Part shown: piece by piece, positions 3,601 through 48,400 of the stretch | Position numbering within the stretch: position 1 is the first letter of the stretch | How the letters are laid out: each line of letters opens with the position of its first letter | NCBI GenBank assembly: GCA_902827015.1 | Contig: CADEGZ010000001.1 | Span: forward strand, 1 to 54,276 | DNA length: 54,276 nucleotides | Direction: 5' to 3' | Source of the DNA: an uncultured Pseudomonadota bacterium | GTDB lineage: Bacteria > Pseudomonadota > Gammaproteobacteria > UBA6186 > Azoamicaceae | The notes under the pieces: model-generated | The model's database searches: none | What the model was told of the DNA's origin: nothing | Seen by the model: only the letters and a program-made list of their open reading frames with translations | Made by a program: the position numbers and the translations under genes

Positions 3601-6600
3601 GCGCAAGACTTAAATAATAGAAATCATTATAATCAATCTTCAATACTTTTATTATCTTCCTCTGTTGATTTTTCATTACTCAAAAAATCGTTTAATTTCT
3701 TAATTAAACATCATGATCTTTTGAGATGTAGGTATGCTAAGCATAAAAAGAACAATGGAAATAATTGGGAACAAATTGCCTTAGGGATAGATGAAGAGAA
3801 TATTTCTTCAATTTGGTCAGAAATTGATTTAAAGGATGTGTGTGATCAAGATTTAACTGAAGCCATAGAGAAGCAGTCAAGTAAAATACAGGCAAGCTTG
3901 AATATAGAATCGGGTCCTTTATTAAGAGCGGTTCTTTTTAACTGTGGGAAAACTAGAACAGCAAGGCTCCTTATAGTCATCCATCATCTTGTTATAGATG
4001 GTGTATCATGGCGGATCTTACTTGAGGATTTAGAAAGCATTTATAAACGCTTAAAAGAGGGTTTGAATTTTTCTGATATTTCTAAAATATATAGGAAGAG
4101 CCATTCTTATGAACAGTGGTCTAATGCTTTAATAAAATACGCTCCTCAATCCAGCGTGCTTAAAAAACAAATTCCTTATTGGAAAGCAATAGAACAACGA
4201 TGTAGAAGAATTACACTACCAAAAGATTTTAAAGAACAAAAAACGGAGAGCATAAGCAGTAATAACTCATTGCGTTCAGTGGTTTTGTCTTTAAATGAAG
4301 AAGAAACTAAATTTCTTCTTCAAAGTGTACCCAAAGCCTATAGAACGGAAATCAATGATATTCTTTTAACAGCAGTGACGCTTGCTATAGGGGATTGGAC
4401 TGGAAAGTATGAAATAAGTCTCTCATTAGAAGGGCATGGTAGAGAAGATATAGGGTTTGACATAGACATATCAAGAACAATTGGTTGGTTTACTACAGTA
4501 TTTCCTGTTTATCTTGACTTGAAGAGCAGTGTAAGAATTCAAGAGACTAAAGACATTACTGATATTAACCTAGAAAAAGCTATTAAAAAAGTCAAAGAAG
4601 AAATTAGAAAAATTCCAAATAAAGGTATTGGGTATGGTGTTCTTGCTTATTTAAACAAAAGCTTAAGTAAGAAAAATAATGTTAATGCTGAAAATCAGCA
4701 GCCTATAAGCTTTAATTATTTGGGCCAATGGGACAATATTTTGCAGAAAGAGGGGCTATTTAGCTTTGCTGCTGAATCAAGCAGAGAAAATATATCAAAA
4801 GAAAATAAAGATCCATATCTTTTAAACATTAATAGCGAGATAAAGCAAGGTATTTTTAGTATTTCTTTTGGTTATAATAGTCTTGATTACAAAAAAGAAA
4901 CTATAGAAAAGGTTGGTAATTACTTTATCTCAAGGCTTAAGCAAATCATTAATCATTGCACGATTGAAGGTGCCTATGGATATACATCTTCAGATTTTTC
5001 TCTGATAAATTTGTCTCAACAATCTATTAATACTAATTTTGCCAGCATTAAAGGGATAGAAGATATTTACCCGCTCACTCCAATGCAATCAGGACTTTTA
5101 TTCCAATCTCTATATACACCTGATTCGGACGCTTATTTTGTACAAAGTATTTTTGAACTGATGGGAGTAGATAAACAAGTTTTTCAGCTAAGCTGGCAAA
5201 AGGTAAGTGACCATCATCCCATTTTAAGAACCGGAATAGTATGGGAAAATTTAGATGAACCGGTTCAATACGTTCTTGATCGGGCAAAAGTAGTTTTTGA
5301 GGAATATAATTTAGAGTTGGAAGAAATTAGTAGTAAACAACTTAAACTTGATGAGATTATTCAAAAAGATAGAAAGAAAGGTTTTAATTTAAGCAAAGCC
5401 CCTCTTTTTAGGATAATTCTAGTTAGTTTTTCTGAAAATAAACATTATATGATTTGGAGTCAAAGCCATATATTAACTGATGGATGGAGTACTCCTATTA
5501 TTCTTGGAGATTTTCTTAAAACTTACAGAGAAATCAAAAAAGGAAAGAGAGTAAATGAAATATCACTTACAACAAGGAACCCTTACAGAGAATATATAGC
5601 GTGGCTTAAAGAACAAGACAATACTAAAGCAGAAGCCTTTTGGAAAGAATACTTAGGAGGCATAAGTGGGCCTACAAAATTGAGTCTTAAAGATACCATA
5701 AATCTAAAAGAATACTCAAAAGAAGCGATAATAAATGATTACTTTACACATACAATGAATCTTTCAGAAGAAATCACAGAGAAAATACAAAATTTTGCAA
5801 GGAATAATAATTTTACTTTAAATACTGTAATTCAAGGAACAATTGCTACAATACTTAAAAAGTATACTCAAAAAGAAGAGATAATACTGGGCATTACTGT
5901 GTCTGGAAGAACTGTGCCAATAGAAGGCATTGAGGATATGGTAGGACTTTTTATTAACACTCTTCCATTAAGACTAAATTTTAAAGAGAATGAAAGTATT
6001 ATTTATTTCCTTCGAAGATTGCAACACAATACTCAAAATATAAATGAGTATGCATATTCATCATTAGCTCAAATACAATCTTGGTCAGGGCTCAATGATA
6101 CAAAAGGAGGATTGTTCGATGTTCTTCTTGTTTTCGAAAATTATTATATAGGTGAAGAAGCAAAAAGAGAAACCAGTTTGGATAATAATGATAATAATTT
6201 ACATGTTAGATTCTTAAAAGAAATAGAAAAAGCAGAATATCCCTTGAATATCAAAGTGATACCAGGTGAGAAAATATGCATGGAATTTGGCTATAAAATA
6301 ACACATTTCAATGAACAGACAATTCAAAGACTATCTTCGCATTTTCAAGAATTAATAACAGAACTAACAAATAATTCAGGTAAGAGTATTAATGATCTTT
6401 CTCTTCTAACTGAGCAAGAAAAGGATCAAATGCTAATAAAGTGGAATGAAACGGATGTTGTTTATCGAGAAATTGCTCAACACGAAACAATCATCCAGCT
6501 TTTTGAGAGGCAAGCTCAGAAGACACCGAACAATGTTGCTATAGTATATAATGAGAGACAATTGACTTATAAGCAACTAAATGAAAAAGCTAATCAATTA

Positions 6601-14088: not shown

Positions 14089-15346
14089 ATCGCTTTTTCC
14101 TCCACATTTTTTTAAACCACAGTAACTGGGTAACGTCAATAATTTTGCTATTGGCTACGTTTTTAACAACTAAAAATTTTATCTTCATAAATATCTTACA
14201 GAGTATGATTACAAACACATTGTTTCCTAATACATTCATCATTGTTACAACTGGATCAAATAAAATACATAATGTAGTAATTAAAGCAGACATTTCTCCT
14301 GAAAAATTTAGATGTGCTTCTATAACTGGCAACATTACCAAAATAGTTCCGCCAGGGATCCCTGCTGCAGAAAATTTTGTTAATAGGAAAGATACTGCAA
14401 AGTAATTATAAGTTTCAAACCATGGGAACTTATATCCAAAAGTTACTAAAATTGATAATGTTAAAAAAGGAATAATGATACTATCACCAATCATATGAAT
14501 ATTAACAGTAGTTGGTATAATTACTCTAACAAAATTAGAGCCTTGAGTGTTTTTTTCAGCTGCTTTTAAAGTAATTGGCATAGCCGCTAAACTAGACATA
14601 GTTGAAAAACCAGTTAAAGCTGCAGGTAAGGCATTTTTAATATATTTTAACCATTGTTTAAAATCAAATTTAGCTGCGAGAGCGTATAAAATTGCTAAGT
14701 ATAAAAGACAAGTTAACATGACAATTACCATTATTGGAAGAAAGGATTGAATAATTTTATTTAAAATTCCCTCATGTTGCATTTTTACAAAGAATCCTAA
14801 AGAAAATAGAGGTAATACCGGAATAAAGTACTTTTCAATAAATAAACTAGATATTATTTTTGCGTAATCACTAAATTTATGAATCCAAGAAATTTGAAAA
14901 AATGAAAGTAAAAGTCCCAATGAAAAACCAAAACACAATGCTTGATTGTTTGAAATCCATTTTGGCAATTCGAAATTCCATAATGGAACTAATTGATCTG
15001 TGTACTCAGTATTATTTATAATAATTGAACTTAGCTGAATCAATTCAATTGATCCAACTCCATAAGCAATCAATGTAGAAATGTAGTTAGAAATGCAGAC
15101 AGCTCCAAACAAAAACAACATAAATACAATGGCCTTTTTACTTTGTAATGTAAGTAGAGAAGAAAATAAATAGCTAAAAATAATGACAGGCAATACGAAC
15201 AATAAAATTTCTTTCAAAGTAAGGCTTATTGCGTACAATATGGATTGTAAATTTTGAGGAAGCCAATGGCCAAACAACAACGTACTAATTAAAATTACGA
15301 GTAGTTTAACTGATAAATTCCATTTTAAAAACTTATTAATAGTCAA
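14078..15346 (-). CDS. Cation:dicarboxylate/amino-acid symporter family (SDF/DAACS) membrane transporter
   Basis: 422-aa polytopic protein with family-like strings TMSSLAAMPITL, NIHMIGDS and AAGIPGGTILVM. It is a paralogue of the next gene. Its stop overlaps the plus-strand NRPS stop by 11 nt (convergent). Confidence 0.6.
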   Translation of the reverse strand: MTINKFLKWNLSVKLLVILISTLLFGHWLPQNLQSILYAISLTLKEILLFVLPVIIFSYLFSSLLTLQSKKAIVFMLFLFGAVCISNYISTLIAYGVGSIELIQLSSIIINNTEYTDQLVPLWNFELPKWISNNQALCFGFSLGLLLSFFQISWIHKFSDYAKIISSLFIEKYFIPVLPLFSLGFFVKMQHEGILNKIIQSFLPIMVIVMLTCLLYLAILYALAAKFDFKQWLKYIKNALPAALTGFSTMSSLAAMPITLKAAEKNTQGSNFVRVIIPTTVNIHMIGDSIIIPFLTLSILVTFGYKFPWFETYNYFAVSFLLTKFSAAGIPGGTILVMLPVIEAHLNFSGEMSALITTLCILFDPVVTMMNVLGNNVFVIILCKIFMKIKFLVVKNVANSKIIDVTQLLWFKKMWRKKRFIQ

Positions 15347-15422
15347 AATATTGTGTCCTTTATAGATAAGTCCATTTTTGGCAAGACTATTTCTCGTAAT
15401 ACCTACTCTTTAACAATTACAA

Positions 15423-16682
15423 TTATGAAATAAGAGGATTAATTGCGTTTGATGTTTGTATAGTATGTTTATAACTATCAAACTCCTTTTTTGCTTCACA
15501 ATCAACCACTGCTACCACACATGAATCTGACCATACATTAACTGTTGTTTCTAGCATATCAATTATTGAATAAAACGGCAGAATAATGGCAAGAACATTT
15601 AAAGGAATGTTCATAGCTACTAAAAAAGCACTTGAAAGAAAGTAACAACCCATGGGAACTCCAGCATTTCCGACCGCAGCTATTGTAGCAATAAAAGTCC
15701 ATAATATCATTTCAAAAATAGAAAAATGTATTCCATGATTCATAGACACAAAGAGGACAGTAGTAAGAATAAAAGCAGCACAACCATTCATATTAATAGC
15801 TGTGCAAAGTGGAAATGCTAAATTTGTCAACTTTTTTGGCATTTTTGCTTTTTCTTCAGCGCAACGCATGGTCATGGGTAAAGCTACGCTTGATGACTTC
15901 GAAAAAAAAGCTAACAATAATGCAGGCAACATATCATGAGCCAGCTTTATTGGCGAAATTCCCTTACTTTTTACAAAAAGTGGCAGTACAATCATTCCTT
16001 GAACTAAATTAGCAGCTATTATTGTCAATAAATATAAGGTAATTTGTTTTATATTTAGGTTTCCTTGCACATCTTTAATTAAAATTACCATGAAACTCCA
16101 AACTGCAATGGGGATCAAATATATTATCCAAGATGCTATTTTTATAATAAGACCATGAAGACTTGAAAATAGACTATGCAATGTCAAGCGTTGTTGGCTA
16201 GGTAGCCCCAAACTAGCAAAACTGAATAATATAGCTAAAAACAGTACACTGATTACATGGTTCTCATAGAATGGAGAAATTATATTGGATGGTATAGTTT
16301 GCATAAAGTAAGTTAGGTACTCTTTTTTCTCTGGAGTTTCCATAATTAACGGCTTTACTGTAGAAATTGCACGTGCTGGATCAAATAATAAATAAAGAAT
16401 TAAGGCAATAACTGACGCAATATAAGTAGTAATCAGTGTATATTTTACTAGTTTTTTTCCAATATTTTTAAATTCCTCAATGTTATTCATCCCTAAGGTA
16501 GTAGAAAAAATGGAGAGAAAGATAATAGGAGCACTAATCAGTTTAAATAAATTCATGAATATTTGTGAAATTAAAGAAGCAATTTGATTAAAAACGTTAT
16601 TATCCCAATAGCCTACTAAAATACCTAGGACTAGACCAATGATAATCTTTAAATTTTGATTTAAAGCTAGCTTAAGCCTCAT
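15423..16682 (-). CDS. Cation:dicarboxylate/amino-acid symporter family (SDF/DAACS) membrane transporter
   Basis: 419 aa, polytopic. Contains SSSVALPMTMRC, AINMNGCAAF and AAVGNAGVPMG, which match the conserved re-entrant-loop motifs of GltP/SstT/TcyP-type carriers. Confidence 0.7.
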   Translation of the reverse strand: MRLKLALNQNLKIIIGLVLGILVGYWDNNVFNQIASLISQIFMNLFKLISAPIIFLSIFSTTLGMNNIEEFKNIGKKLVKYTLITTYIASVIALILYLLFDPARAISTVKPLIMETPEKKEYLTYFMQTIPSNIISPFYENHVISVLFLAILFSFASLGLPSQQRLTLHSLFSSLHGLIIKIASWIIYLIPIAVWSFMVILIKDVQGNLNIKQITLYLLTIIAANLVQGMIVLPLFVKSKGISPIKLAHDMLPALLLAFFSKSSSVALPMTMRCAEEKAKMPKKLTNLAFPLCTAINMNGCAAFILTTVLFVSMNHGIHFSIFEMILWTFIATIAAVGNAGVPMGCYFLSSAFLVAMNIPLNVLAIILPFYSIIDMLETTVNVWSDSCVVAVVDCEAKKEFDSYKHTIQTSNAINPLIS

Positions 16683-16924
16683 AATTTATTAAACGACCTC
16701 TTTCTATTTTACAACTCAGATAATTAACCTAAAATTCACATGCCATAATAAATAAATCTACCTGTAAATAACTTATAATTTATCAACTTTCATGTGAGGT
16801 GTTGTATCTATTAATAAGTATAAAGACACGCCATAGGTATCAAAAAACCCCCTCAAATTTTAATTGCCTTTTATTGTAAGCAATTTCAAAACCTTATAAT
16901 CATCTTCCTCTATCATAGAATAAA

Positions 16925-17299
16925 TTAAAACTTGCAAAAGTCCTCTTTCATATCAGTATAATGTATTGCATTTATTTTACTTGCACAGATGAAATCATTT
17001 TCAGACAATCCTGCAATGGCATGTGTCCAATACTTGACTGTACATTGACCATACTCAATTTCCAAATAGGGATGATGATCTTCTTGGTGAGCTATCCAAA
17101 CAACTGCATTAATAAATGCAATATTTTGATAGTAATTTTCAAATTGGAAAGTTCGACAGAGTTTCTTTACCTCACCATTTTCTATTACCCACTCCGAAAT
17201 GCCTTTTAGCATAGAATTTATTTCTTCGTCATTTAAAGGAGGTATTCCCCCTTCACATGGCATACATTGTTTTTTAATTAATTTTTTCACTTTTTTCAT
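16925..17299 (-). CDS. Pterin-4-alpha-carbinolamine dehydratase (PCD/DCoH family)
   Basis: QEDHHPYLEIEYGQCTVKYWTHAIAGLSENDFICASKI matches the PCD core (HHP..Y..V...TH...GL...D). A CxPC string lies near the N-terminus. I chose the ATG at 17299 (AGGGA about 9 nt upstream). The tool's longer start at 17407 would overlap the upstream gene by 71 nt. Confidence 0.75.
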   Translation of the reverse strand: MKKVKKLIKKQCMPCEGGIPPLNDEEINSMLKGISEWVIENGEVKKLCRTFQFENYYQNIAFINAVVWIAHQEDHHPYLEIEYGQCTVKYWTHAIAGLSENDFICASKINAIHYTDMKEDFCKF

Positions 17300-17336
17300 T
17301 ATTTTTTCCCTGAAAAATAATTGATCTAAAGGATTT

Positions 17337-25855: not shown

Positions 25856-26072
25856 CCATTATCAAACAAAAAATAGTATTTTATCACCGAATTCAAAATA
25901 CTACCCGTCCCCTATCATAAATCTTTAATCAGCTTAATGAATCTAACATTAAATTTTATATAAAGCTACTAAAAAGGCGCATGGAGAAATAGTTAAATTT
26001 TTATTTTTAATTACCTGGTAGTCTTAATGTTATTTAAATAGCCAACATCGTTTATAAAAACCTTTATATCTA

Positions 26073-29000
26073 TCAGCTTTTATTTGATGCCAAAATTAGC
26101 TTCTCTAAAAAGTCTAAATAAATCCAGGCTAGATCTTTAATCTTTTCTTCAGAAAAAGTATTAGTGCTATAATTCCAGTCAAAACGAAGTTCATCATTCA
26201 CAACTACCGAAACAATATCAATTTCATGTACTCTTAGTGACTCGCCAGCAATTGGAAAACCAAAATACTCATCCGCCATAGAAAAAACAGTATTACTAAA
26301 TATATTATGTGTAAATTGCCCCAAGTAATTAAAACTAATTAATGGTTTTACCATATTAAGATCTTCTCTTAACTTCTGATTTGTACTCATATACTTTAGT
26401 AATAGGAATTCAAATCCAAAGTTAGGAATGGCCTGTAATTGCTGATCAGTGGCTATAACTAATTGATCTAAAGTTAAATTTTTTTTATACCATAATATGA
26501 TTGGGTAAATACTAGTGAACCAGCCAACTGTACGCGATACATCAAGCTGATTAAAACTATTACGGCCATGAGCTTCTAAATTAACCGTAAGATATTCCAA
26601 ACCGTAAACCTTATAAAAAGTTTGAATGAGCGGTAAAAGCAATAGTGTATTGACATGAACGTTATAATACTTTATTGACCAAGTAAGGAATACTTGAGTC
26701 AATTTTTTATTAAGACATATACTAATAGTTTTTTGGCTTGTATAATTATTAAGGCCTTTTTTAAACATCCTACCAATATTGGACTTAGCTTCTTTGCTTA
26801 AACATCGCCAATAATCAACAATAGGTTGTTTTTCAACAATTTTTACATACTTTTCAAGCTCGTTAGCCCAATTCTGATAACTGGATGTCTTTTCTAATAA
26901 ATCTATGGGTTTATTTTCTTTGAGCTGAAAATATGCTGTGTTTATGTCTTCAATTAGTATTCTCCAAGAAACACCGTCTATTATAAGATGATGAACGATA
27001 ATCAGTAAGCGATTACCTCTTTCGTTACCAAGTTCAAAATACAAAAAACAAGCTAAAGGACCTCGGGAAATATTTAAACTAGCATGTGCTTTATTTGAAA
27101 ATTCAAGCATTTTTTGCTTTTGCTCAGCGTACGAGTAATCCGATAAATTTATATTTGAAAAAACATAGCTGCTTTCTTCATACCTTGCAACCCAAGTCTG
27201 ATTAAAATTAAATCTAAGAGAAAAAACATCATGATAATTAATGACATATTTAATAGCCTGTTCAAGTAATTGTACGTTAAGACTTTCTTTGGGTTTTAAC
27301 TTAAATAACTGATTCCAATAATTATAATTACCAATTTTTTGTTCAAAAAACCAATATTGAATCGGAGATAATTTTTGTTCATTGCCACTAACCCGACTTG
27401 TGATCTCCAATGTTTCAAAATGATTAATAATATTTATTAATTCTTTAATTGTTTGTTTTTCAAACAAGTCTTTCACTCTAATATAAATTTTACGCTTACG
27501 TAACTTGGCAACAATTTGCATTAAAGAAATTGAATCACCTCCCAAATGAAAAAAATTAGAGGTTATATCGTTAACTTCTACTCCTAATACTTCTCGCCAA
27601 ACTTCAGCAATTATTTTTTCAACGTCAGTTTTTGGTTTAATATTCTGATTTAAATCTTCTAGTTGTAAAAAAACTTTATTTTCCAATATGGTTTTTTCCA
27701 ATTCCCTACGATCTACTTTACCATTTTTATTTAACGGAAAAGTATTGATTTGAATAAAATATGAAGGTACCATATATTCCGGCAGTAATTCAATTAGGTA
27801 AGCACGCAAATCTTTAACGGAAATTGGTACATCTGCTTGTAAATAACCTACTAATTTTTTCTGTTTATTAATTTCCTTAAGTAAAACTACAGCTTGTTGT
27901 ACTCCAAAATATGTAGTTAATGTAGCTTCAATTTCGCCTAATTCTATACGCAACCCTCGCAACTTAACCTGGTGATCTATTCTACCAAGGTAATTTAAAT
28001 AGCCCTCCTCATTCCACTTAACTAGATCACCCGTTTTATATAATTTTTGATATTTAATATCATAAGAAAATTGATTATCAATAAATTTTTCAGCAGTAAG
28101 ATTTGGTGCATTTAAATAACCTTTTGCCAATCCAATACCTGACAAATGTAATTCGCCAGATACTCCAATTGGTACAGGATTACTAGACTCATCCAAAACA
28201 TAAACTTTCATATTAGAAATAGGCTTTCCTATAGGAACAGGTAAATTTTGAGAATCAATATAACATTCTTGGTAAGTAACATCTACAGATGCTTCCGTTG
28301 GACCATATAAATTGTGTAGTTTTACTTTTTTTAGTTTTAACAAAAATTTATTAACGTCTTTTCTTGACAGAGCTTCACCACTACAAAATACTTGTGACAA
28401 ACTAGCACAATTCTTAATATCAACAGTATTCATAAACGCATTTAACATTGAAGGCACAAAATGTAAAATAGTAACTTTATGCTTATTTATTTGTTCAAGT
28501 AAATACTCCGGATCTTTATGCCCATCCGGTTTGATAACAACAATACTTGCACCAATAATTAATGGCCAGAAAAATTCCCAAACTGAAACATCAAAGCTAT
28601 AAGGAGTTTTCTGCATAACACGATCATTTTCTGTTAAAGAATATTCTTTTTGCATCCATAATAAGCGATTACTTATACCAGCGTGTTGAATCATAACCCC
28701 TTTAGGAATTCCCGTTGATCCTGACGTGTATATTGTATAGGCAAGATCAGCTTCTGAAATTTCTACTTTTTTATACAACTTTTTTTTCTTACTACCATCA
28801 AGTAAAACGTTAATATTTAAAATTGGCTTATCCGTTATTTCAGTTATTTTATTCTGATAGAATGTTTCTGTAATAATTGCTAATGGTTTTGCGTCGGCAA
28901 TTATTGTTTTTATTCGAAATTCTGGTGTAGATATTTCTAAAGGGATATATGCTACGCCCGCATATAAAATTCCAACTAATGCAATAACTCTCTCAATCGA

Positions 29001-30764
29001 TCGATCCATTATAACAATAACAAAATCACCAGGTTTAGCGCCTTGATACTGTAATTCTGCAGCTATGATCTTTGCTTGTCTATCGAGTTCATAATAATTG
29101 ATAGTAGATCGATCATCGACTAAAGCAATTTTATTCGGCTTAATCGCACACTGTTTTTGAATAAGTAAAGGTATCGGAGTTAAATAGTTAACAGTATAGT
29201 CTTCTGTGTTATTCCATTTTTCGACAACAAGTCGATATTCACTATCTGAAAGAACTCTTAAGTTTTTAACTTGATCTTCTTGGCTAATGATAATTGATTC
29301 AATACATTTACAATAGTTTTCAAAAAATCTCTGAATAAATAAACTAGTAAATATATTTGTTGCATAATCTATGCTAAAAATTAACTGATTTTCTACGTTT
29401 TTAATATCAACGCTCAACTTAAAAGGGGAATACGGATTAGGAGTTAGTATAGATTCTATATCAATGCCATTTAAGTTTAAAGGTTCTTCTTGCTCATCTG
29501 AATAATTAAAAAGTACCTGAAAGAATTGTTGATAATTACCAACGTAATCCTTTTCTAGTGCATGTTTAATAATTTTATCTAGAGGTACTTGTTGAAACTC
29601 GCTTAGTTGACTTAACTTTGATTGTACTTTAATCAAGAATTCAGAAAATATTTCATTATCAATTAACAACCTAAAAGGTATTGTATTAACAAATAAGCCG
29701 AATATACTCTCCATCTTTAAATCAAAACGATTAGAAACAGGAATTCCTATTAGGATATCTTTTTGACATGTGTAACGGTTTAATAATATAATAAAACAAC
29801 TAAGTAAAACTGTATAGAGCGTACAGTTATTTTTATTAGAAAGTTTTCTTATTTTATCTGTTAATTGTTTACTAATATACCAAAATAAAGTGTTTGTAGA
29901 TTTCATTGATTGTTGTGAGCAGTTAACATTATTATTAACAGGTAAATCAAGAATAGTTATATCTTTCAACTCATTGGCCCAAAATACCAATTGTTTATCA
30001 AAAAATTTTTGAGTGCTTTCTTGGTTTTCCCAAATAGCGTAATCTCGGTAGTCTAGTTCTATTTCTTTAAATACATAATCACTGTTAGAATTGTATAATA
30101 TTGACAATTCTTGCATAAATTGCTTAATTGACCAACCATCAATAATAATGTGATGTACTTTAATCAAAAAGACAGTAAAAAATTCATCTTTTTGAATTAA
30201 TGATGCTTGTATTAATGAGTTACTATTTAAATCTAATTTTGTATTAAAAAACTGATCTATATATTCACTAACATTTTTATCATCCATATCGAATAATGAG
30301 GGTTTATCTAAACAAAAATTTATTTCATCTATTACTTTTTGATAAGGTATACCTTCGATTTCAATAAAAGTCGTTTTAAAAATGTTATGTCGGTTAATTA
30401 AGATTTGAATACATTTTTCCAATAAAGGTATATTCAGTTTCCCTCGAAAATTGTAAGCGGCTCTTACTATATAAACTGGCATTTCTGAGGATAATTTTGA
30501 TTCTAGCAACATTCTCTTCTGAGCATGCGAAAGAGGGGCTAATATCTTATTACTTGAAAATTGAGATATAATGGTTGAATAGGCTTCATTGTTAAAATAA
30601 CAAGACTGTAAAAACTCTAATATTTTTGCTTTATTTTGGGAAAGTTTTTTTAAAAAATTTTCAGGAATATTCCCTTGTTTTGACTTGACTTCAAAATTAC
30701 CATTTTTCTCAGAAAGTATTACACCATATGATCTTGCTTCTTTCAAAATATCTACAACACTCAT
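26073..30764 (-). CDS. Single-module NRPS: N-terminal docking domain - C(LCL-type) - A(Ser code) - T - E; no TE
   Basis: Docking MSVVDILKEARSYGVILSEKNG..; C1 LAPLSHAQKRMLL; C3 VHHIIIDGWS (~30131-30157); A3 LAYTIYTSGSTGIPKG (~28695-28727); A4 SFDVSVWEFF; NLYGPTEASVDV; T GGDSISLMQ (~27530-27550); E LSPIQYWFF, VHHLIIDGVSWRIL (~26974-26997), LEAHGR, RTVGWFT, FNYLGQF. Confidence 0.93.
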   Translation of the reverse strand: MSVVDILKEARSYGVILSEKNGNFEVKSKQGNIPENFLKKLSQNKAKILEFLQSCYFNNEAYSTIISQFSSNKILAPLSHAQKRMLLESKLSSEMPVYIVRAAYNFRGKLNIPLLEKCIQILINRHNIFKTTFIEIEGIPYQKVIDEINFCLDKPSLFDMDDKNVSEYIDQFFNTKLDLNSNSLIQASLIQKDEFFTVFLIKVHHIIIDGWSIKQFMQELSILYNSNSDYVFKEIELDYRDYAIWENQESTQKFFDKQLVFWANELKDITILDLPVNNNVNCSQQSMKSTNTLFWYISKQLTDKIRKLSNKNNCTLYTVLLSCFIILLNRYTCQKDILIGIPVSNRFDLKMESIFGLFVNTIPFRLLIDNEIFSEFLIKVQSKLSQLSEFQQVPLDKIIKHALEKDYVGNYQQFFQVLFNYSDEQEEPLNLNGIDIESILTPNPYSPFKLSVDIKNVENQLIFSIDYATNIFTSLFIQRFFENYCKCIESIIISQEDQVKNLRVLSDSEYRLVVEKWNNTEDYTVNYLTPIPLLIQKQCAIKPNKIALVDDRSTINYYELDRQAKIIAAELQYQGAKPGDFVIVIMDRSIERVIALVGILYAGVAYIPLEISTPEFRIKTIIADAKPLAIITETFYQNKITEITDKPILNINVLLDGSKKKKLYKKVEISEADLAYTIYTSGSTGIPKGVMIQHAGISNRLLWMQKEYSLTENDRVMQKTPYSFDVSVWEFFWPLIIGASIVVIKPDGHKDPEYLLEQINKHKVTILHFVPSMLNAFMNTVDIKNCASLSQVFCSGEALSRKDVNKFLLKLKKVKLHNLYGPTEASVDVTYQECYIDSQNLPVPIGKPISNMKVYVLDESSNPVPIGVSGELHLSGIGLAKGYLNAPNLTAEKFIDNQFSYDIKYQKLYKTGDLVKWNEEGYLNYLGRIDHQVKLRGLRIELGEIEATLTTYFGVQQAVVLLKEINKQKKLVGYLQADVPISVKDLRAYLIELLPEYMVPSYFIQINTFPLNKNGKVDRRELEKTILENKVFLQLEDLNQNIKPKTDVEKIIAEVWREVLGVEVNDITSNFFHLGGDSISLMQIVAKLRKRKIYIRVKDLFEKQTIKELINIINHFETLEITSRVSGNEQKLSPIQYWFFEQKIGNYNYWNQLFKLKPKESLNVQLLEQAIKYVINYHDVFSLRFNFNQTWVARYEESSYVFSNINLSDYSYAEQKQKMLEFSNKAHASLNISRGPLACFLYFELGNERGNRLLIIVHHLIIDGVSWRILIEDINTAYFQLKENKPIDLLEKTSSYQNWANELEKYVKIVEKQPIVDYWRCLSKEAKSNIGRMFKKGLNNYTSQKTISICLNKKLTQVFLTWSIKYYNVHVNTLLLLPLIQTFYKVYGLEYLTVNLEAHGRNSFNQLDVSRTVGWFTSIYPIILWYKKNLTLDQLVIATDQQLQAIPNFGFEFLLLKYMSTNQKLREDLNMVKPLISFNYLGQFTHNIFSNTVFSMADEYFGFPIAGESLRVHEIDIVSVVVNDELRFDWNYSTNTFSEEKIKDLAWIYLDFLEKLILASNKS
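30590..30764 (-). other. TubC-like N-terminal NRPS docking domain
   Basis: MSVVDILKEARSYGVILSEKNGNFEVKSKQGNIPENFLKKLSQNKAKILEFL follows the G-V-x-L..(beta-hairpin)..K/P-x-G-x-[IL]..L...K..IL.[FL]L pattern of beta-hairpin docking domains. Confidence 0.55.
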
Positions 30765-30962
30765 CTTAGGATATATTCTCCAAATACATTTTATTAAAAA
30801 ACTTAATAATGAAATTTAACTATTTCAACTGCTAGTGATTGTACATTGCTAACTAACAACTTCTGCACTACCACATAGGTTAATATGTGTCTAGCAATAT
30901 ACAAAAATTATCGTATCAAATCAAGCCAAGCCCTTATAATAACTCGTAAGTTCATGTGGTTT

Positions 30963-33962
30963 TTAAAATTTCTCCCTAACACGAATTCGTTCAATTAAAG
31001 AGTAGATCACAGGTACAACAAATAAAGAAAGTCCAGTTCCCATTAACATTCCTCCGATAATAACCCAACCAATATGTTTTTTCGCAACTGCTCCTGCTCC
31101 TACACTAAACAACAAAGGGATTGCACCACACACCATAGCAAATGTTGTCATTAATATAGGTCTTAGTCGAAGTTCCGCTGCGGTTAGAATCGTATTTTTC
31201 AAAGACCGATCCTGAGTACGAAGCCGATTAGCAAAGTCAACAATTAGTATACCATGTTTAGTAATTAAACCAATCAAAGTAACTAACCCAATAATGGTAT
31301 AAACATTATTCGTACCATTTACCCAATTAATTGTCCAAACTGCACCTGTTATTGAAAGTGGGACTGTTAACAATACTACAAAAGGATGAATGAAACTCTC
31401 AAATAGAGCCGCTAACACTAAGTAAATAAAAACTAAGGCAAGTGCAAAGGTTAACCACATAGCATCTCTAGATTCTTTAAATTGCTCTGCTTTGCCACCA
31501 AACTGATAATGGGCATCAACAGGCAAGTATTTTTTTATAATAGGATCTAATATCTTCATTGCATCATCTAATGCCACCCCTGATTGCAAAGAAACCACTA
31601 CTTCAGTCCCTCGCATTCGATCGTAATGTTTAATTTGATTTAATCCTATGGTTTCTTTTAAAGTAGCTACACTTCCCAAAGAAGCCCATTGTCCTTCATT
31701 ATTAGCAACAAAATAAGAGTTTAAACTACTTAATTCTGAACGCAATTTCTTTGGTGCCCTTACTTGTACATCATAGTCCAACCCTTCAAAATTAAAATTT
31801 GTTACCTTACGACCTGATAATAATGTATATAATGTATCTTCAATGACATCAACATTAATGCCTAATTCATTAACTAATTCTCTATCAAGAATAACTTCTA
31901 GCCTTTTCTTTTCCAAATTTTCTTCGCATTTTAATACATCAAATTCTGGATATTTTCTAGCTTCTATTATTATGCTATTTAAAGCCTTTAAAAGTTTTCT
32001 TTGATCCCCATTATATTGCAAAATAATTTTCAAAGGCTCTTCACTTGCAAAATTTTGGTTATCAGTAATATCTACTTCAGGCCCAATAATAGACTTCAAC
32101 CTAGGTTTTAAAGTTTTAGCAATTTCCTGACTTGTGCGATTACGTTCTTTATTTGGTTTCAGCAATAATGACCACCACATCCACTGATCTTGCCAAATGC
32201 CCGTTACAGTTAATTCGGCTTCCGGTACATTTTTCAATATCGTTTCAATGTTTTTAAACCAACTTTCTTTGATCTCTAGCGTAACTGAATTTTTTGCACT
32301 AATTGAACCTTGTAAATATCCTTGATCTTCGATAGGTACTAATTCAGATGGAAGTTTTTGAAAACCAATGGTTCCTAATAAAATAATTAAAAATAAAGTA
32401 AAACAAATTGCTCTTGGATGTTCTATTGCAATTGTAAGTAACATTCGATAATGAGTAGCCATTATGTCCCAATAATGTATTTTTTTAGATTCTTTTAAAA
32501 ATTTAGCGCCTAAAGCTGGAGTCAATGTTAAAGCAACGAATCCTGAAATAACAACACTTCCCGCTAATGTCCAAGCAAATTCACGAAATATTATGGCAGC
32601 ATCGTCTGCTTGAAACAATAAAGGGACGTAAACAGCAGCTAAAGTAACTGTCATTACTACTACTGAAAAACTAATTTCTTTCATACTACGTTTAGCTGCA
32701 TCTAAACTAGTTAAGCCTTCTTCCATATGTCGATAAATATTTTCAACTACTACTATTGCGTCATCTACCACCAAACCAATGGCTAAAATTAGCGAAAGTA
32801 ACGTAATAGGGTTTATACTAAAATCTAATATCCACATAAGGGCAAATGAACCGATTAAGCACAATGGCACTGTAATCATAGGCAAAAAAGCCGCTCTTAT
32901 TGAACCCAAAGAAAGTGTAATAATAATTCCTACTAAGATAATGCCTTCCCATAATGTATATCTCATATTAATAAAAGCTTCTGAAAAAGCTTTAGTTGCA
33001 TCAAAACTAATAGATACTTTTATAGAATCAGGTAACGTTCTTTTTAAATCTTCTACAAAATGATAAACCCGTTTCGCTACTTGTAAAGGGTTTGCGTTAG
33101 ACTTTGCTAATATTTCTAATCCAACTATATAATTACCATTAACTCTTATTTTTAAATATGTTGGCTTTTGAGTAATTGAAATGGTAGCGACATTATCTAT
33201 TGTTATGCGTTCATTCAATCTTTTTTTCACAGTTATATTTGCAAAATCTTGAGGTTTCTTGACTGACGACATTAAAACTACCGATTGACTTCCAGTTACT
33301 CCTTCAATTTCACCCCCTGAAGTATGTGTATTTTCACGTCGCAATGCATCTACAACATCTTTAATAGTCACTTGAAACTTTGCTAACAATGCTGGATCAG
33401 GCGTTATCGCAATCATATATTGCTCATCACCAAAATGACCAACTTTTGCAACCCCTTCTATTAAAGTTAGACGAGCTTCTATTACACGTCGAATATAATC
33501 AGATAGAGCAGCAATACTCTGAGTTTTATCTTCAAATCTTAAATAAAGAATAGCAGAATTATTTTCCGCTTGCTCTTGAATTTCTGGGCGTTTTACTGAT
33601 TCTGGTAAAACACTCGTGGCAGCTAATACACGATCACGAACTTGGCTTAATGCTTTATGAGTATCAATACCAACTTTAAATTTAATATGAATTTCGCTAC
33701 GACTATCTTGGGTAGTAGAATTAAGTTTTTTAATTCCATCAAGACCAGCCAGAGCATCTTCTAAAGGTTTAGTAACTTGATACTCTACTGTAGAACTATT
33801 AGCCCCAGGAAAAATTGTAGTAACGCATATTTCACTTCGTGTTACATTTGGTGTATGCCGAAGTTCTAAATGATGGAAAGAAACTAAACCTAAAATTAAC
33901 AATACTAAATTGATAGCAATTGTCATTACTGGACGACGTATAAAAATCTCCGAAAATTGCAT
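30963..33962 (-). CDS. RND efflux permease (AcrB/HAE1-like inner-membrane subunit)
   Basis: About 1000 aa. The canonical N-terminus MQFSEIFIRRPVMT starts at the ATG seventh codon of the tool ORF. I prefer it to the TTG at 33980, and it forms a TAATG overlap with the adaptor's stop. There are two large periplasmic loops between TM1/2 and TM7/8, plus ..GLVVDDAIVVVENI.. and ..LRPILMTTFAMVCGAIPL.. Confidence 0.9.
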   Translation of the reverse strand: MQFSEIFIRRPVMTIAINLVLLILGLVSFHHLELRHTPNVTRSEICVTTIFPGANSSTVEYQVTKPLEDALAGLDGIKKLNSTTQDSRSEIHIKFKVGIDTHKALSQVRDRVLAATSVLPESVKRPEIQEQAENNSAILYLRFEDKTQSIAALSDYIRRVIEARLTLIEGVAKVGHFGDEQYMIAITPDPALLAKFQVTIKDVVDALRRENTHTSGGEIEGVTGSQSVVLMSSVKKPQDFANITVKKRLNERITIDNVATISITQKPTYLKIRVNGNYIVGLEILAKSNANPLQVAKRVYHFVEDLKRTLPDSIKVSISFDATKAFSEAFINMRYTLWEGIILVGIIITLSLGSIRAAFLPMITVPLCLIGSFALMWILDFSINPITLLSLILAIGLVVDDAIVVVENIYRHMEEGLTSLDAAKRSMKEISFSVVVMTVTLAAVYVPLLFQADDAAIIFREFAWTLAGSVVISGFVALTLTPALGAKFLKESKKIHYWDIMATHYRMLLTIAIEHPRAICFTLFLIILLGTIGFQKLPSELVPIEDQGYLQGSISAKNSVTLEIKESWFKNIETILKNVPEAELTVTGIWQDQWMWWSLLLKPNKERNRTSQEIAKTLKPRLKSIIGPEVDITDNQNFASEEPLKIILQYNGDQRKLLKALNSIIIEARKYPEFDVLKCEENLEKKRLEVILDRELVNELGINVDVIEDTLYTLLSGRKVTNFNFEGLDYDVQVRAPKKLRSELSSLNSYFVANNEGQWASLGSVATLKETIGLNQIKHYDRMRGTEVVVSLQSGVALDDAMKILDPIIKKYLPVDAHYQFGGKAEQFKESRDAMWLTFALALVFIYLVLAALFESFIHPFVVLLTVPLSITGAVWTINWVNGTNNVYTIIGLVTLIGLITKHGILIVDFANRLRTQDRSLKNTILTAAELRLRPILMTTFAMVCGAIPLLFSVGAGAVAKKHIGWVIIGGMLMGTGLSLFVVPVIYSLIERIRVREKF

Positions 33963-34888
33963 TACCAATCTTCCGCCCAATCAGTACAACTTACCTTTTT
34001 TCCTTCTTGAATTAAACTTTTATGAACTAAAACAACAGGCTCTCCCAAATTTAATCCAGAGGTAACATGCACTCGCCCATCTTGCTTTTCTCCTATTCTA
34101 ATGGCTCTTTTTTGTATTTTACTATCCACTATTACAAAAACATCATATCCATCTATCCCGAAAACTAAACATAACTCAGGGATAATTAATGCTTTAGAAT
34201 GCACCTCTAAAAAATGTCTTATATGTGCTAACATTCCAGGCAACAGATTTCGATTGGTATTTTTAATTGTTGCACGTACTAAAATAGTATGAGCTTTAGT
34301 ATCAACTACCGGCGAAACAAAATTTACAAATCCCTGAAATATTTTATTATGAAATGCTTTAACAAATATTTGAACTGGTTGACCAATCTGTAATCTTACA
34401 GCATAGCACTCAGGAACTCGATATGTTATTGATAAAAAATCCGTATTAACCAATTCGATTAATTCTGTGCCAGTGGTTACATATTCGCCCGGTTTAACCT
34501 GCCAATCGGTTAAATACCCGTCAAAAGGAGCATATACCTCAGGTGCAGCAATAATATTAGCTAATAATGTCCCTTTTTTAACCCAGGAACCAGACTCAAC
34601 TAATAAATATTGAATTCTTCCAGAAGTCCCTGCTTTTAATTTTAATTCCTCCTTTGCTGTTAATTGCCCAACTGTTTCTATTAGTTCGGGCATAGAAGCT
34701 TCTTTTACACGTATAGTTTGAACCTGAATAAGATTTTCTTCACTTTGACTTTCACTAAAAAAATGCTGATGTATTATTATTTTAATGAATATAGCTAAAA
34801 TCAAAATACAAATCATTGATACAAAAAAAATGCAAAAATTTTTAAGATTAGCAAACTTAATATGCTGGATACTAAATTTTTTTAACAC
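33962..34888 (-). CDS. RND efflux periplasmic adaptor (membrane fusion protein, HlyD/AcrA family)
   Basis: It has an N-terminal membrane anchor (FCIFFVSMICILILAIFIKIII), then the lipoyl/hairpin-type string GTLLANIIAAPEVYAPFDGYLTDWQVKPGEYVTTGTELIELV and a beta-barrel tail. It has a GTG start and is coupled to the RND gene. Confidence 0.8.
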   Translation of the reverse strand: MLKKFSIQHIKFANLKNFCIFFVSMICILILAIFIKIIIHQHFFSESQSEENLIQVQTIRVKEASMPELIETVGQLTAKEELKLKAGTSGRIQYLLVESGSWVKKGTLLANIIAAPEVYAPFDGYLTDWQVKPGEYVTTGTELIELVNTDFLSITYRVPECYAVRLQIGQPVQIFVKAFHNKIFQGFVNFVSPVVDTKAHTILVRATIKNTNRNLLPGMLAHIRHFLEVHSKALIIPELCLVFGIDGYDVFVIVDSKIQKRAIRIGEKQDGRVHVTSGLNLGEPVVLVHKSLIQEGKKVSCTDWAEDW

Positions 34889-34997
34889 AAAATATATTCC
34901 ATAAATTCAATTTTTATCTTATCCGCTTCCTTTATATAAATAATATCTACCAAATTAGTAATACCATAATGATTATAAATATATAAACTGCATCTTG

Positions 34998-45400: not shown

Positions 45401-48400
45401 ACCAGTCCAGCTCGTTCCAATGTAACTGACAGTCTTTTTCAATAACCTGTAACGGCTGCGGCATTTCTTCCCAAATAAATGCCGTACGTAACACAGAATA
45501 TTTTTGTAAAATACTTTCCCAGGATTTTTTAAATCTTAATACATCTAACTTCCCATACATATCCCATGTTAACTGAGTTAAGTAGTCATCTGAGTTTTGA
45601 TGATATAGATGGTGGAACAAAAATCCTTGTTGGATACTAGTAGCAGGCAAAATCTCTTCTAATTGAGGATACTTAGATACAATCTTATCTAATTGGTGTT
45701 GATTTAACTTACAAAAAGGAAAATCACCCGAAGATAAAATTTGCCTGTTAAAAGCACGACAAAAAATAATTAAATTTTCTATTTCTTCAATATAATCTTT
45801 AGCCCAATTTTTTACCGTTATTTCAGCATGAATATTTTGGCTATATAACCAATAAAAAATAAAATTATTATCCTGGATAAAACAATTCAGATCTAATAAA
45901 TGAGGCCTAATATTTTGCGGCCCCCGATCAAAACCACTTGTCATTGACACTATGTTAAAATACTTTTCTGAACTATGATCAGAAAATTTTCCTAGATAAT
46001 TATAAGCAAGCTGTGGCATAAAATTATTCCAACCGCACTTACTAGTATCTGAGTTTAAATATCGCAACATACCATAACTAAGTCCTTTATTGGGTATTAT
46101 GAGCAATTTATCCTTTATAAGTTTCAGATCTTGTAATATCTCCCCTGTTTCTGAGATTTCTAGAGATAATGGATACATGTTGGTAAACCATCCAATAGTT
46201 CGCGATAGATCAATTTGATCAGTTAAAGTCTCACGACCATGACTATCAAAGTTTAATACCCAAATTCGATTTTCAGTGTGTTTTTTTAATACCCTTAAAA
46301 GAGCCGTTACTAAAATATCATTTATTTTTAAACTAGTTTGTGCGGTGAGATTATTTACTAAATAACTGGTAGAATCAGTATCTAATTTATAAATAAATTC
46401 TCGCATGCTAGCTTCAATATTTTTACCTTGATAATCTAATGGTAACTCACCGCTAGAATTAGATAGCTGCTTTTGCCAAAAAGATAAATCAACAGTATTT
46501 TTCTCGTCCATCGCCTTTTCAGATAAATAATTAGCCCACTGACGCAAAGAACTAGTTTTTTCTGGAAGCGAAACTTCACAATTATTGATTAATTTATGAT
46601 AAACATTATTTAAATCCTCTAATAATATTTTCCATGAAAATGCATCAATAATTAAATGGTGAGCAATAATATAAAAGTGCTCATCAAAATTACCATTTAT
46701 CTTATTAAAGACAACTGCTTTAATTAATGCACCTTTTTCAAGATCTAAACTGGATTGCATGGCTTGTAAGTGTTTATTTATTGTATTTTCGTAATTAAAA
46801 CTATTAGTTTGTTGTAATGTAATGCACTCTACATAGTCACTGTTAACTTTGTCTAGATAATACTGCTCCCATATAGAATTATCATTCACAAAACATAATC
46901 TAAATGCGTCATGATGTTTTACCAATATTTTAAATGTTTCATTCAATTTTTCAATATCTTTATTTCCATTCCACTTAATTTTGAACACTTGATTCCAATA
47001 ATTATTTTCAATCAACTTCAAATCAAAAAACCAATGTTGAATTGGCAATAGATTAACTCGCCCAGTAAGAAAACCTTGCTCTGGACTAACAGATTTCTTT
47101 GGTTTTATTTTAGAAACTAAACTGGCGATAGTGTTTGATTCAAAAATATCCATTACAGTTAAATAAATTCCTTCTTCATAACCTTTTGCAATAACTTGTA
47201 AAGCCGAAATTGAATCTCCTCCTAATTCAAAAAAATTATCTTCTACTCCTATAGGGGCAACGTTTAATACCGATTCCCAGATGATTGTGAGCTTCTTCTC
47301 TTGATCACTGATTGGAGGAATAAAATTTTTACTGGCGTTATAATTCAAATAAGGATCTGGTAATAAGTTTGTATCTAATTTATTGTTATTATTCAAAGGA
47401 AACTTGTCAACTCTGATAAAAAAAGCTGGGACCATATATTCAGGTAAGTTTTCATATAAATAGTTTCGTAAACCTTCAATTTCAATTGGTTTTTTTTCTA
47501 TGTAATATGCAATTAAGTGCTTATTTTGAAATTTATCGTCTTTTGCTATCACTACATTATCTATTACATTTGGATAAGCATTAATCGTTTGAACAATCTC
47601 CGCAGGTTCAATTCGATAACCACGAATCTTAATTTGCTCATCAACTCGGCCTAAATAATTAACAATACCTTCAGGCAACCAACAAGCAATATCACCTGTT
47701 TTATACATCTTATTAGCATCAAAAAAAGGATCTTGCAAAAACCTTTCTGCAGTCAACTCTGGTTTATTAAAATACCCCTTAGAAACACTTTTTCCTGAAA
47801 TATACAATTCACCAGGAATGCCAATAGGGCAAAGCCTTCCATTGCTATCAAGAATATAAAGTTTAGTATTAAAAGCTGGCTTCCCTATAGGATAAGTGAA
47901 TAAATACTTATTTGCGTTATTAACATCAATAATAAAGGCGGCAGTGGCTACAGTAGTTTCTGTAGGTCCATATTCATTAACAATCTTATGGTGTTGATAC
48001 CTTGTAAGCCATTCTTTAACTTCATTGACCTGTAGGGCCTCACCACCTAAAATAAAAAACCTTAATGATTCTAATTTATGCTGCCCATTCGCAAAGCGAC
48101 ACATTTGAATAAAGTAACTTGGTGTGCATTTAGAAAATGAAATTTGTTTTTCTTCAAGATGATTAAGATAAAGAACTGGATCTTTTTTTACTTCATCATC
48201 ACAAATTGCAACGGTACATCCCTGCAATAAGGGTAAAATAGAACAAGTAACTGATAAATCAAAAGATACAGATGTAGAAAAATCAAAAGTGTCTTTTTTG
48301 GAAACCATAAACACTTTACTAAACCAATTGGTATAATTGAGAACGTTACTATGGCTAATCATTACCCCTTTAGGTTTTCCAGTCGATCCAGAAGTATAAA

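Follow-up and report, generated by a model that had tools for sequence, protein, structure and literature searches.

Paralogous single-module synthetases with apparently exchanged adenylation cores as candidate alternative last subunits of one nonribosomal peptide assembly line

Among nonribosomal peptide synthetase (NRPS) lines that fork, the closest described system is the wollamide/desotamide pathway of Streptomyces, in which the last NRPS gene is present as two duplicates, wolG1 and wolG2, that differ in a recombinant block of the adenylation (A) domain, from motif A2 to A5/A6 (Booth et al. 2022, PMC9205934). WolG1 and WolG2 both use the WolH docking domain, heterologous expression gave two product families, and the WolG docking domains were modelled on that of PaxB (6TRP) (PMC9205934). 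Here we describe a window of 54,276 bp (about 31% GC), contig CADEGZ010000001.1 of an uncultured Pseudomonadota bacterium, which is cut at both ends inside NRPS genes. Encoded in it are two single-module NRPSs, P1572 (1572 aa, 37768–42486) and P1563 (1563 aa, 26073–30764); coordinates refer to the window, and features lie on its minus strand unless the plus strand is given. Each comprises an N-terminal docking domain (NDD) followed by condensation (C), A, thiolation (T) and epimerization (E) domains, as assigned from the open reading frames (ORFs), Pfam and domain hidden Markov models (HMMs). The minus-strand order is P1261, P2651, P1572, a TauD dioxygenase, a MATE exporter, an HlyD/AcrB pump and P1563. 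On balance we consider it probable that P1572 and P1563 are bifurcated terminal modules of one line, which would end its products in D-Val by way of P1572 or in D-Ser by way of P1563.

The locus appears to match the WolG1/WolG2 design closely, a design that was therefore already known, and would place it in a different, low-GC organism and in a minimal single-module format. Common to both are the duplication of a last subunit within one cluster, divergence of the A block and different predicted substrates for the last residue; both copies also retain N-terminal docking domains that, by sequence logic here, would serve one upstream subunit. WolG1 and WolG2 have two modules each, share 81% identity, come from high-GC Streptomyces and are backed by experimental proof, whereas P1572 and P1563 are single modules, 55% identical, which suggests an older split, in DNA of 31% GC. 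The block also differs in extent, running here from the C–A linker and motif A1 to just past A5 rather than from A2 to A5/A6, and its donor is absent from the contig. Two further systems are related in part. Anabaenopeptin AptA1 and AptA2, in the account of Rouhiainen 2010 as given in PMC8402340, are likewise two paralogous subunits with different A specificity, a common partner and resulting product variants; their fork opens the line, with two donors serving one acceptor, whereas the one proposed here would close it, with one donor serving two acceptors. In the vatiamide pathway, in so far as PMC10127204 relates it from Moss 2019, one C-terminal docking element serves several NDDs, as proposed here, but the fork leads from a polyketide synthase module into three multi-module NRPS branches with near-identical docking domains, whereas the NDDs here are 62% identical.

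Over their full length P1572 and P1563 are 55% identical (BLASTP, E = 0), and they share one layout: TubC_N, two Condensation matches, AMP-binding and PP-binding in Pfam, read as C-A-T-E by custom domain HMMs. This similarity is far above what chance would give, and neither protein has another relative nearly as close. The nearest relative of P1572 other than its paralog, in a search of 5.8 billion clustered proteins, is 36% identical; the best locus in a GTDB scan for homologous clusters reached 35%, and none of the inspected loci had the paired single-module layout. An earlier note, made by reading this DNA without database searches, had claimed that the two ORFs share their docking, C and Asub-T-E portions (Asub being the A subdomain). 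Both ORFs lie where it placed them on the minus strand, and the motifs it quoted (PLSHAQKRML, VHHIIIDGWS, GGDSISLMQ and HHLI[IV]DGVSWRIL) occur in both paralogs.

By region, identity between the paralogs is 62% in the NDD, 63% in C, 60% in the rest of A, 61% in T and 66% in E. Set within these regions is a block (P1572 aa 516–843, 39958–40941; P1563 aa 517–845, 28230–29216) that is 33% identical between the two, and for which a two-breakpoint model gains 98 in twice the log-likelihood difference. The block begins at the WNN motif of the C–A linker and ends shortly after motif A5, at the PIGKPISN stretch ahead of A6; it comprises motifs A1–A5 and nine of the ten specificity-code positions. DNA repeats shared by the two genes (69–79% identity) span the NDD/C and T/E parts and skip the block, so that the P1563 block has no DNA repeat with P1572. 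Each paralog's block is 41–44% identical to A domains of unrelated bacteria (41–43% for that of P1572) compared with 30–33% to the block of its paralog, a value no higher than those against the remaining A domains of the contig; the donor of the swapped block is not among the latter (30–36% identity). Because a 33% block is embedded in sequence of about 63% identity, the pattern points to replacement of the substrate pocket by recombination; in the simplest history, the whole gene would have been duplicated and the stretch of one A core that bears the pocket replaced afterwards. Natural recombination is known to target the A core (Acore) and to spare Asub-T (Baunach 2021, PMC8097286). The exchange unit here likewise lies within Acore and leaves Asub-T untouched, although its left breakpoint, at or within the C–A linker (WNN motif), falls at the margin of what was usually preserved in that survey.

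Substrates were predicted from the ten code positions, anchored on the sequence of GrsA-PheA, for which the anchor returns the canonical DAWTIAAICK (positions 235–517). The codes obtained, DAFWLGGTFK for P1572 (Val-type) and DVWHFSLVDK for P1563, are exactly those that had been read by hand in the earlier note. Escherichia coli K-12 EntF, annotated as serine-activating and run identically, returns DVWHFSLVDK, the same as P1563 at 10/10 positions. DAFWLGGTFK is matched at 10/10 by A domains in two Brevibacillus loci and at 9/10 by DAFWIGGTFK, which in three Bacillus ORFs precedes DLTKVGHIGK, an order that corresponds to the Val-Asp of surfactin SrfA-B. Structures give no support for Val specificity, as the best PDB match, LgrA A1, has a different pocket at motif A4 in the alignment (..FSFDGSALD..); the Val assignment rests on the code identity with the Brevibacillus and Bacillus loci. 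The substrates predicted for the forked position differ, being Val for P1572 and Ser for P1563.

Preceding the paralogs are the truncated P1261 (50435–54276, cut by the contig end), with the order ..A-T-C-A-T, and P2651 (42483–50438), the presumed common upstream donor, with the order NDD (TubC_N)-C-A-T-E-C-A-T, both assigned from Pfam, domain HMMs and codes. The last A domain of P1261 carries a Cys-like code (DLYNLSLIWK), and those of P2651 carry DLTKIGEVAK and DITKVGEVGK, both Asn-like. That P2651 ends as an L-configured donor, as claimed earlier, is borne out by its GGHSL-type last T domain, the lack of an E domain after it and an acidic/hydrophobic tail.

The order in which chains could pass between these proteins depends on the class of the acceptor C domains. 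A positional classifier was built from 76 NRPS loci, in which C domains directly after E served as DCL examples (n = 18) and those after T as LCL examples (n = 123). When cross-validated by locus, the LCL HMM score minus the DCL one had the expected sign in 120/123 LCL (positive) and 18/18 DCL domains (negative). The C domains of P1572 (aa 70–515, 40942–42279, with PLSHAQKRML and HHIIIDGWS) and P1563 (aa 71–515, 29220–30554) score +182 and +172, close to the +190 of the first C domain of P2651, and all three, like the C domain of P1261, are LCL. The two post-E C domains of the contig score −165 and −181, and the motifs quoted for such domains in the earlier note are present, IYPLTPMQSGLLF at P4640 aa 1636 and ILPATSIQQGFLF at P2651 aa 1598. 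Among PDB entries the P1572 C domain ranks TycC5-6 (2JGP, 159 bits) above SrfA-C (110 bits) and TycB1 (91 bits); the first is the LCL archetype, and the other two accept D-configured donors. Given the LCL class, neither paralog appears to be built for a D-configured donor.

The other end of each protein is informative in the same respect. Following the P1572 T domain, which has the GGDSI motif of the type found before E domains (39109–39333), is an E domain with HHLIVDGVSW, LEGHGRN and FNYLGQ (37771–39108); the corresponding motifs of the P1563 E domain (26076–27407) are HHLIIDGVSW, LEAHGRN and FNYLGQ, and both thus keep the catalytic motifs HHxxxDG, the catalytic Glu of EGHGR and FNYLGQ. An alignment with GrsA and the contig's three internal E domains shows that neither protein continues past the final helix of its E domain (C-terminal sequences ..LESIILASKEA and ..LEKLILASNKS). 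Beyond this point GrsA has about 35 more residues, which form the communication-mediating (COM) donor region, and the internal E–C junctions of the contig have 35–40 residues; a COM-type C-terminal extension after the E domain is found in neither P1572 nor P1563. These features bear on serial use of the paralogs, in which P2651 would pass its chain to P1572 and then P1563, or in the reverse order, to make one peptide containing both Val and Ser. Colinearity of the gene order permits such use, and C-domain subtype rules have exceptions, but with LCL acceptors (+182 and +172 against −165 and −181 after E), no residues past the E domain to act as a COM donor or tail, and NDDs of the class that binds T-domain tails in both proteins, we regard it as highly improbable. 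The proposal that neither paralog accepts the D-product of the other, for which the earlier note had suggested a check of C-domain subtype, is in keeping with the classifier, which places both in LCL and neither in DCL, and with the absence of residues past the E domain. Of its description of the pair as alternative terminal modules, the word alternative stands on the LCL class, the ends at the E-domain boundary and the interface pairing described below, whereas the word terminal is weakened, as no release enzyme is assignable.

The internal E domain of P2651 (about 46400–46700, aa about 1260–1400) departs from the usual motifs, with HHLIIDAFSW in place of HHxxxDG(V/W)S and FDSHGRE compared with LEGHGRE, so that Asp occupies the catalytic Glu position; the next C domain is still of the DCL type.

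At the start of P1572 (aa 1–55, 42322–42486) and P1563 (aa 1–55, 30600–30764) are β-hairpin docking domains of the TubC_N family. Together with that of P2651 they are the three NDDs of the contig above the Pfam cutoff of 26 (PF18563), at 36.9, 34.7 and 34.5 bits, respectively, and the best PDB matches of all three are the rhabdopeptide Kj12B/C NDDs (for P1572, Kj12B-NDD 6EWT). The P1563 NDD is 62% identical to that of P1572 and 19% identical to that of P2651. Single-sequence AlphaFold2 (AF2) prediction of P1572 aa 1–55 gave an α-β-β-α-α fold (H-E-E-H-H; predicted local distance difference test (pLDDT) of 70–81) with strand β2 at residues 23–28. We assume that the PaxB docking domain (6TRP) belongs to the same α-β-β-α-α class as the NDDs of the contig. 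In P1572, β2 reads V23-L-E-A26-K27-S, and in P1563 it reads N23-F-E-V26-K27-S.

In the Kj12C/Kj12B complex the last five residues of the tail add a strand to β2, Gly(−2) of the tail lies against Tyr27, and the affinity is adjusted by two salt bridges (PMC6195595). The Kj12ABC system (PMC6195595) resembles the one proposed here in its promiscuous docking, in its β-hairpin NDD class and in the binding of the last five tail residues; its modules are iterative, with a terminal C domain at the end, and its salt-bridge pattern is not reproduced on this contig. The tail of P1261 (..LEEGIL) would place Gly(−2) opposite the Tyr of the P2651 NDD (..QLRYS). The P2651 protein ends in EVFEEVIEL (42486–42512), a presumed short linear docking motif that was quoted in the earlier note and is preceded by DA, and its Ile(−2) would face Ala in P1572 (..VLEAK) and Val in P1563 (..NFEVK). 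Adjacent tail and NDD pairs in other genomes, a small sample of four, follow the same pattern of complementary size, with Gly against Tyr or Phe in two loci (L069, L047) and Ile or Leu against Ile or Val in the other two (L021, L073). Similar T-domain tails in other genomes read ..VEGEL, ..EEGVL and ..EEITL. We infer that the P1572 and P1563 NDDs represent one interface class, both compatible with the P2651 tail, and the only suitable donor within the contig, with its three TubC-type NDDs and two T-domain tails, appears to be P2651.

Several observations weigh against such a fork. When the P1572 NDD was joined to the P2651 tail as a chimera, single-sequence AF2 left the tail unplaced (pLDDT < 50), which is uninformative on binding. 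The salt-bridge register of Kj12 is not reproduced, as Lys27 of both NDDs would meet Val at tail position −3, where an acidic partner is not evident. Genes P1261 and P2651 overlap by 4 nt, as do P2651 and P1572 (the P2651 stop runs onto the P1572 start); this arrangement, suggestive of translational coupling, is not shared by P1563, which lies 7 kb beyond P1572 with four genes between them (TauD and three transporter genes) and a gap of 198 nt upstream. No thioesterase in cis, reductase domain or terminal C domain is present in P1572 or P1563 to account for release, and the β-lactamase-fold enzyme of the cluster is secreted. Owing to the truncation of NRPS genes at both ends of the contig, moreover, there may be partners outside it.

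The last point, together with the setting of P1563 behind TauD and three transporter genes with its own upstream gap of 198 nt, would suit two parallel lines, in which one paralog, most likely P1563, is fed by an NRPS subunit encoded outside the contig, comparable to pentaminomycin/BE-18257 and surugamide A/F. Conservation of the NDDs (62%) is also no higher than that of the rest of the proteins. Both NDDs nevertheless fit one tail class, with a small residue at the Tyr27 position and with E25, K27, S28 and K29 conserved; P4640, the one remaining NRPS of the contig, has a formylation domain at its start and a thioesterase of its own at its end, and the contig has no second tail of the matching class. 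We therefore consider parallel lines rather unlikely. Uncoupling of P1563 from the core operon has another possible meaning, namely that one paralog, probably P1572, is used and that the other is silent, conditionally expressed or a leftover. In the model of Booth et al., one of the two copies is expected to depreciate and disappear (PMC9205934), and the EGHGR motif of P1563 has a G-to-A change (LEAHGRN). Against such decay, P1563 is full-length with its motifs intact (both HHxxxDG motifs, A3, A8, the Lys of A10, the Ser of GGDSI and the catalytic Glu of the E domain), and since motifs are intact despite divergence to about 75% DNA identity, both copies appear to be under purifying selection; a redundant or decaying duplicate is, in our estimate, unlikely. 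A promoter and terminator scan around P1563 returned counts equal to the shuffled expectation in this AT-rich DNA and carries no information.

For the favoured bifurcation, we infer docking of both paralogs to P2651, competition between them, activity of both, epimerization, release and two products. The last subunit gene of the minus-strand line would have been duplicated whole, so that P1261 and P2651 are followed by P1572 or P1563, and in one copy the N-terminal, pocket-bearing A core would have been exchanged with that of a foreign A domain while docking, C, Asub, T and E were kept. The last T domain of P2651 would hold a chain ending in L-Asn or an Asn-like residue, and the tail ..EEVIEL would present it to either β-hairpin docking domain. 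The LCL C domain would then add Val (P1572) or Ser (P1563), the terminal residue would be epimerized, and the two series would end in D-Val or D-Ser, with release possibly by a stand-alone type II thioesterase. The similarity of the tails ..LEEGIL and ..EEVIEL, and the LCL class of all three downstream C domains, would also allow P2651 to be skipped; a wider promiscuous network, in which P1572 and P1563 also accept chains from P1261, at least four products arise and release is neither by a thioesterase in cis nor of the SurE type, in an uncultured, low-GC and possibly host-associated bacterium, is distinctly unlikely as a whole.

Among cytoplasmic hydrolases, the stand-alone type II thioesterase (262 aa, 19099–19887; Pfam Thioesterase, with PDB matches RifR, TesA, RedJ and SrfD) is the sole candidate for releasing the chain. 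Surugamide-family lines, including desotamide, are offloaded by a SurE-like cyclase, whereas neither a SurE-type cyclase nor another release enzyme is assignable here. SurE-type penicillin-binding protein-like thioesterases are cytoplasmic and combine the β-lactamase fold with an extra C-terminal lipocalin-like domain. Such offloading was considered in view of the T-E terminus of the paralogs and a β-lactamase-fold gene nearby, which encodes an S12 protein of 415 aa (21102–22349). The S12 protein bears a Sec signal peptide of the classical kind (MVSKFFTKCCVLVMVLSLSIAEA/TE), and its S12 domain (SxxK as GSITKS, YxN as YTN) occupies aa 24–384, with no space for an extra lipocalin-like domain. It matches alkaline D-peptidase 4Y7P (1e-31) ahead of SurE (2e-10, N-terminal part only) and Ulm16 (5e-5). 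The signal peptide, the lack of the extra domain and the closeness to D-peptidase rule out the SurE-type role, and because of the signal peptide and its closeness to the secreted alkaline D-peptidase, the S12 protein looks like a periplasmic D-stereospecific peptidase. Such peptidases have been linked to resistance against nonribosomal peptides that contain D-residues (PMC9541196, PMC8127968). The gene is set among two MATE exporters, an RND pump and an MFS transporter, and the line also has a D-Asn-forming module (P2651 module 1). This context suggests a role in periplasmic self-resistance or in prodrug processing or maturation.

If both forks are active, the locus would be a second natural bifurcation of an assembly line, independent of and evolutionarily distant from the Streptomyces case. 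Its origin would parallel that case, with a duplicated last subunit and a replaced A-core pocket, in a single-module C-A-T-E format with β-hairpin docking, and would support bifurcation as a general route of NRPS evolution. For engineering, it would offer exchange-unit boundaries validated in nature, at the WNN motif of the C–A linker and shortly after A5, together with a natural docking pair that connects one donor to two acceptors.

Separate from this line is P4640 (1–14088, plus strand), with the order F-A-T-E-C-A-T-C-A-T-E-TE, where F is a formylation and TE a thioesterase domain, and a frame open to base 1. Its start (1–1605) contains a formyltransferase domain (HDSLLPKYAG; Formyl_trans_N 63.5 bits, together with Formyl_trans_C), and the gene begins outside the contig. 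Before its first A domain is only the C-terminal half of a condensation domain (model positions 184–329). This content marks the start as an initiation module of the F-domain type in which part of a C-domain lobe persists. Since P4640 initiates and terminates itself, it is not a partner of the single-module proteins, and its formylation start and own thioesterase rule it out as a donor or acceptor for P1572 and P1563. Modules 1 and 3 of P4640 (A-T-E; aa about 441–1620 and about 3227–4404) are about 85% identical outside one block of about 155 aa (aa 641–796, roughly A3/A4 to A5), in which identity is about 30% and the codes are DMKEIGEIGK and DASTIAAVGK. This block is, by the same comparison, a second, tighter and younger pocket swap on the contig, with which the NRPS genes of this organism appear to document natural subdomain exchange in a useful way.

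Located 5 nt downstream of P1572 is the gene for the TauD-family dioxygenase (36851–37762; Pfam TauD 138 bits), which is likely to be a β-hydroxylase acting on a carrier-bound residue. After P1563 the minus strand encodes, in order, a MATE protein of 917 aa, the β-lactamase-fold protein, the MFS transporter and the stand-alone thioesterase, and these are followed by a CmlA-like hydroxylase, a pterin dehydratase and two SDF symporters. The CmlA-like diiron β-hydroxylase and pterin-4a-carbinolamine dehydratase (16925–18929) adjoin the type II thioesterase and may hydroxylate a carrier-bound residue, either the Tyr-like one of module 3 in P4640 (code DASTIAAVGK) or a different one. Searches for proteins identical to P2651 and P1572, aimed at extending the contig, found none; a look-up of the S12 peptidase yielded only a Logan contig of 14 kb (ERR3089238), whose sequence agrees at 100% identity with 15184–29512 and adds nothing beyond it.

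The 917-aa MATE exporter (22783–25536) is extended at its N terminus by about 380 aa, in which a cysteine-protease signature of the CE clan (Ulp1/ChlaDUB-like) is recognizable from the motifs SGCHWVGIII, IIYIDSLED and QEDVVSCGPLTIENL. In Pfam the extension matches Peptidase_C48 at 19.9 bits, just below the cutoff of 20.7, and RickCE_cat, also weakly. A fusion of protease and MATE transporter adjoining an NRPS is unusual. One of the SDF symporters (15423–16682) has a relative at 59% identity in a Parachlamydiaceae metagenome-assembled genome, and closer matches reach 77%. Together with the GC content of 31% and the CE-clan protease, the symporter relative hints weakly at a host-associated bacterium.

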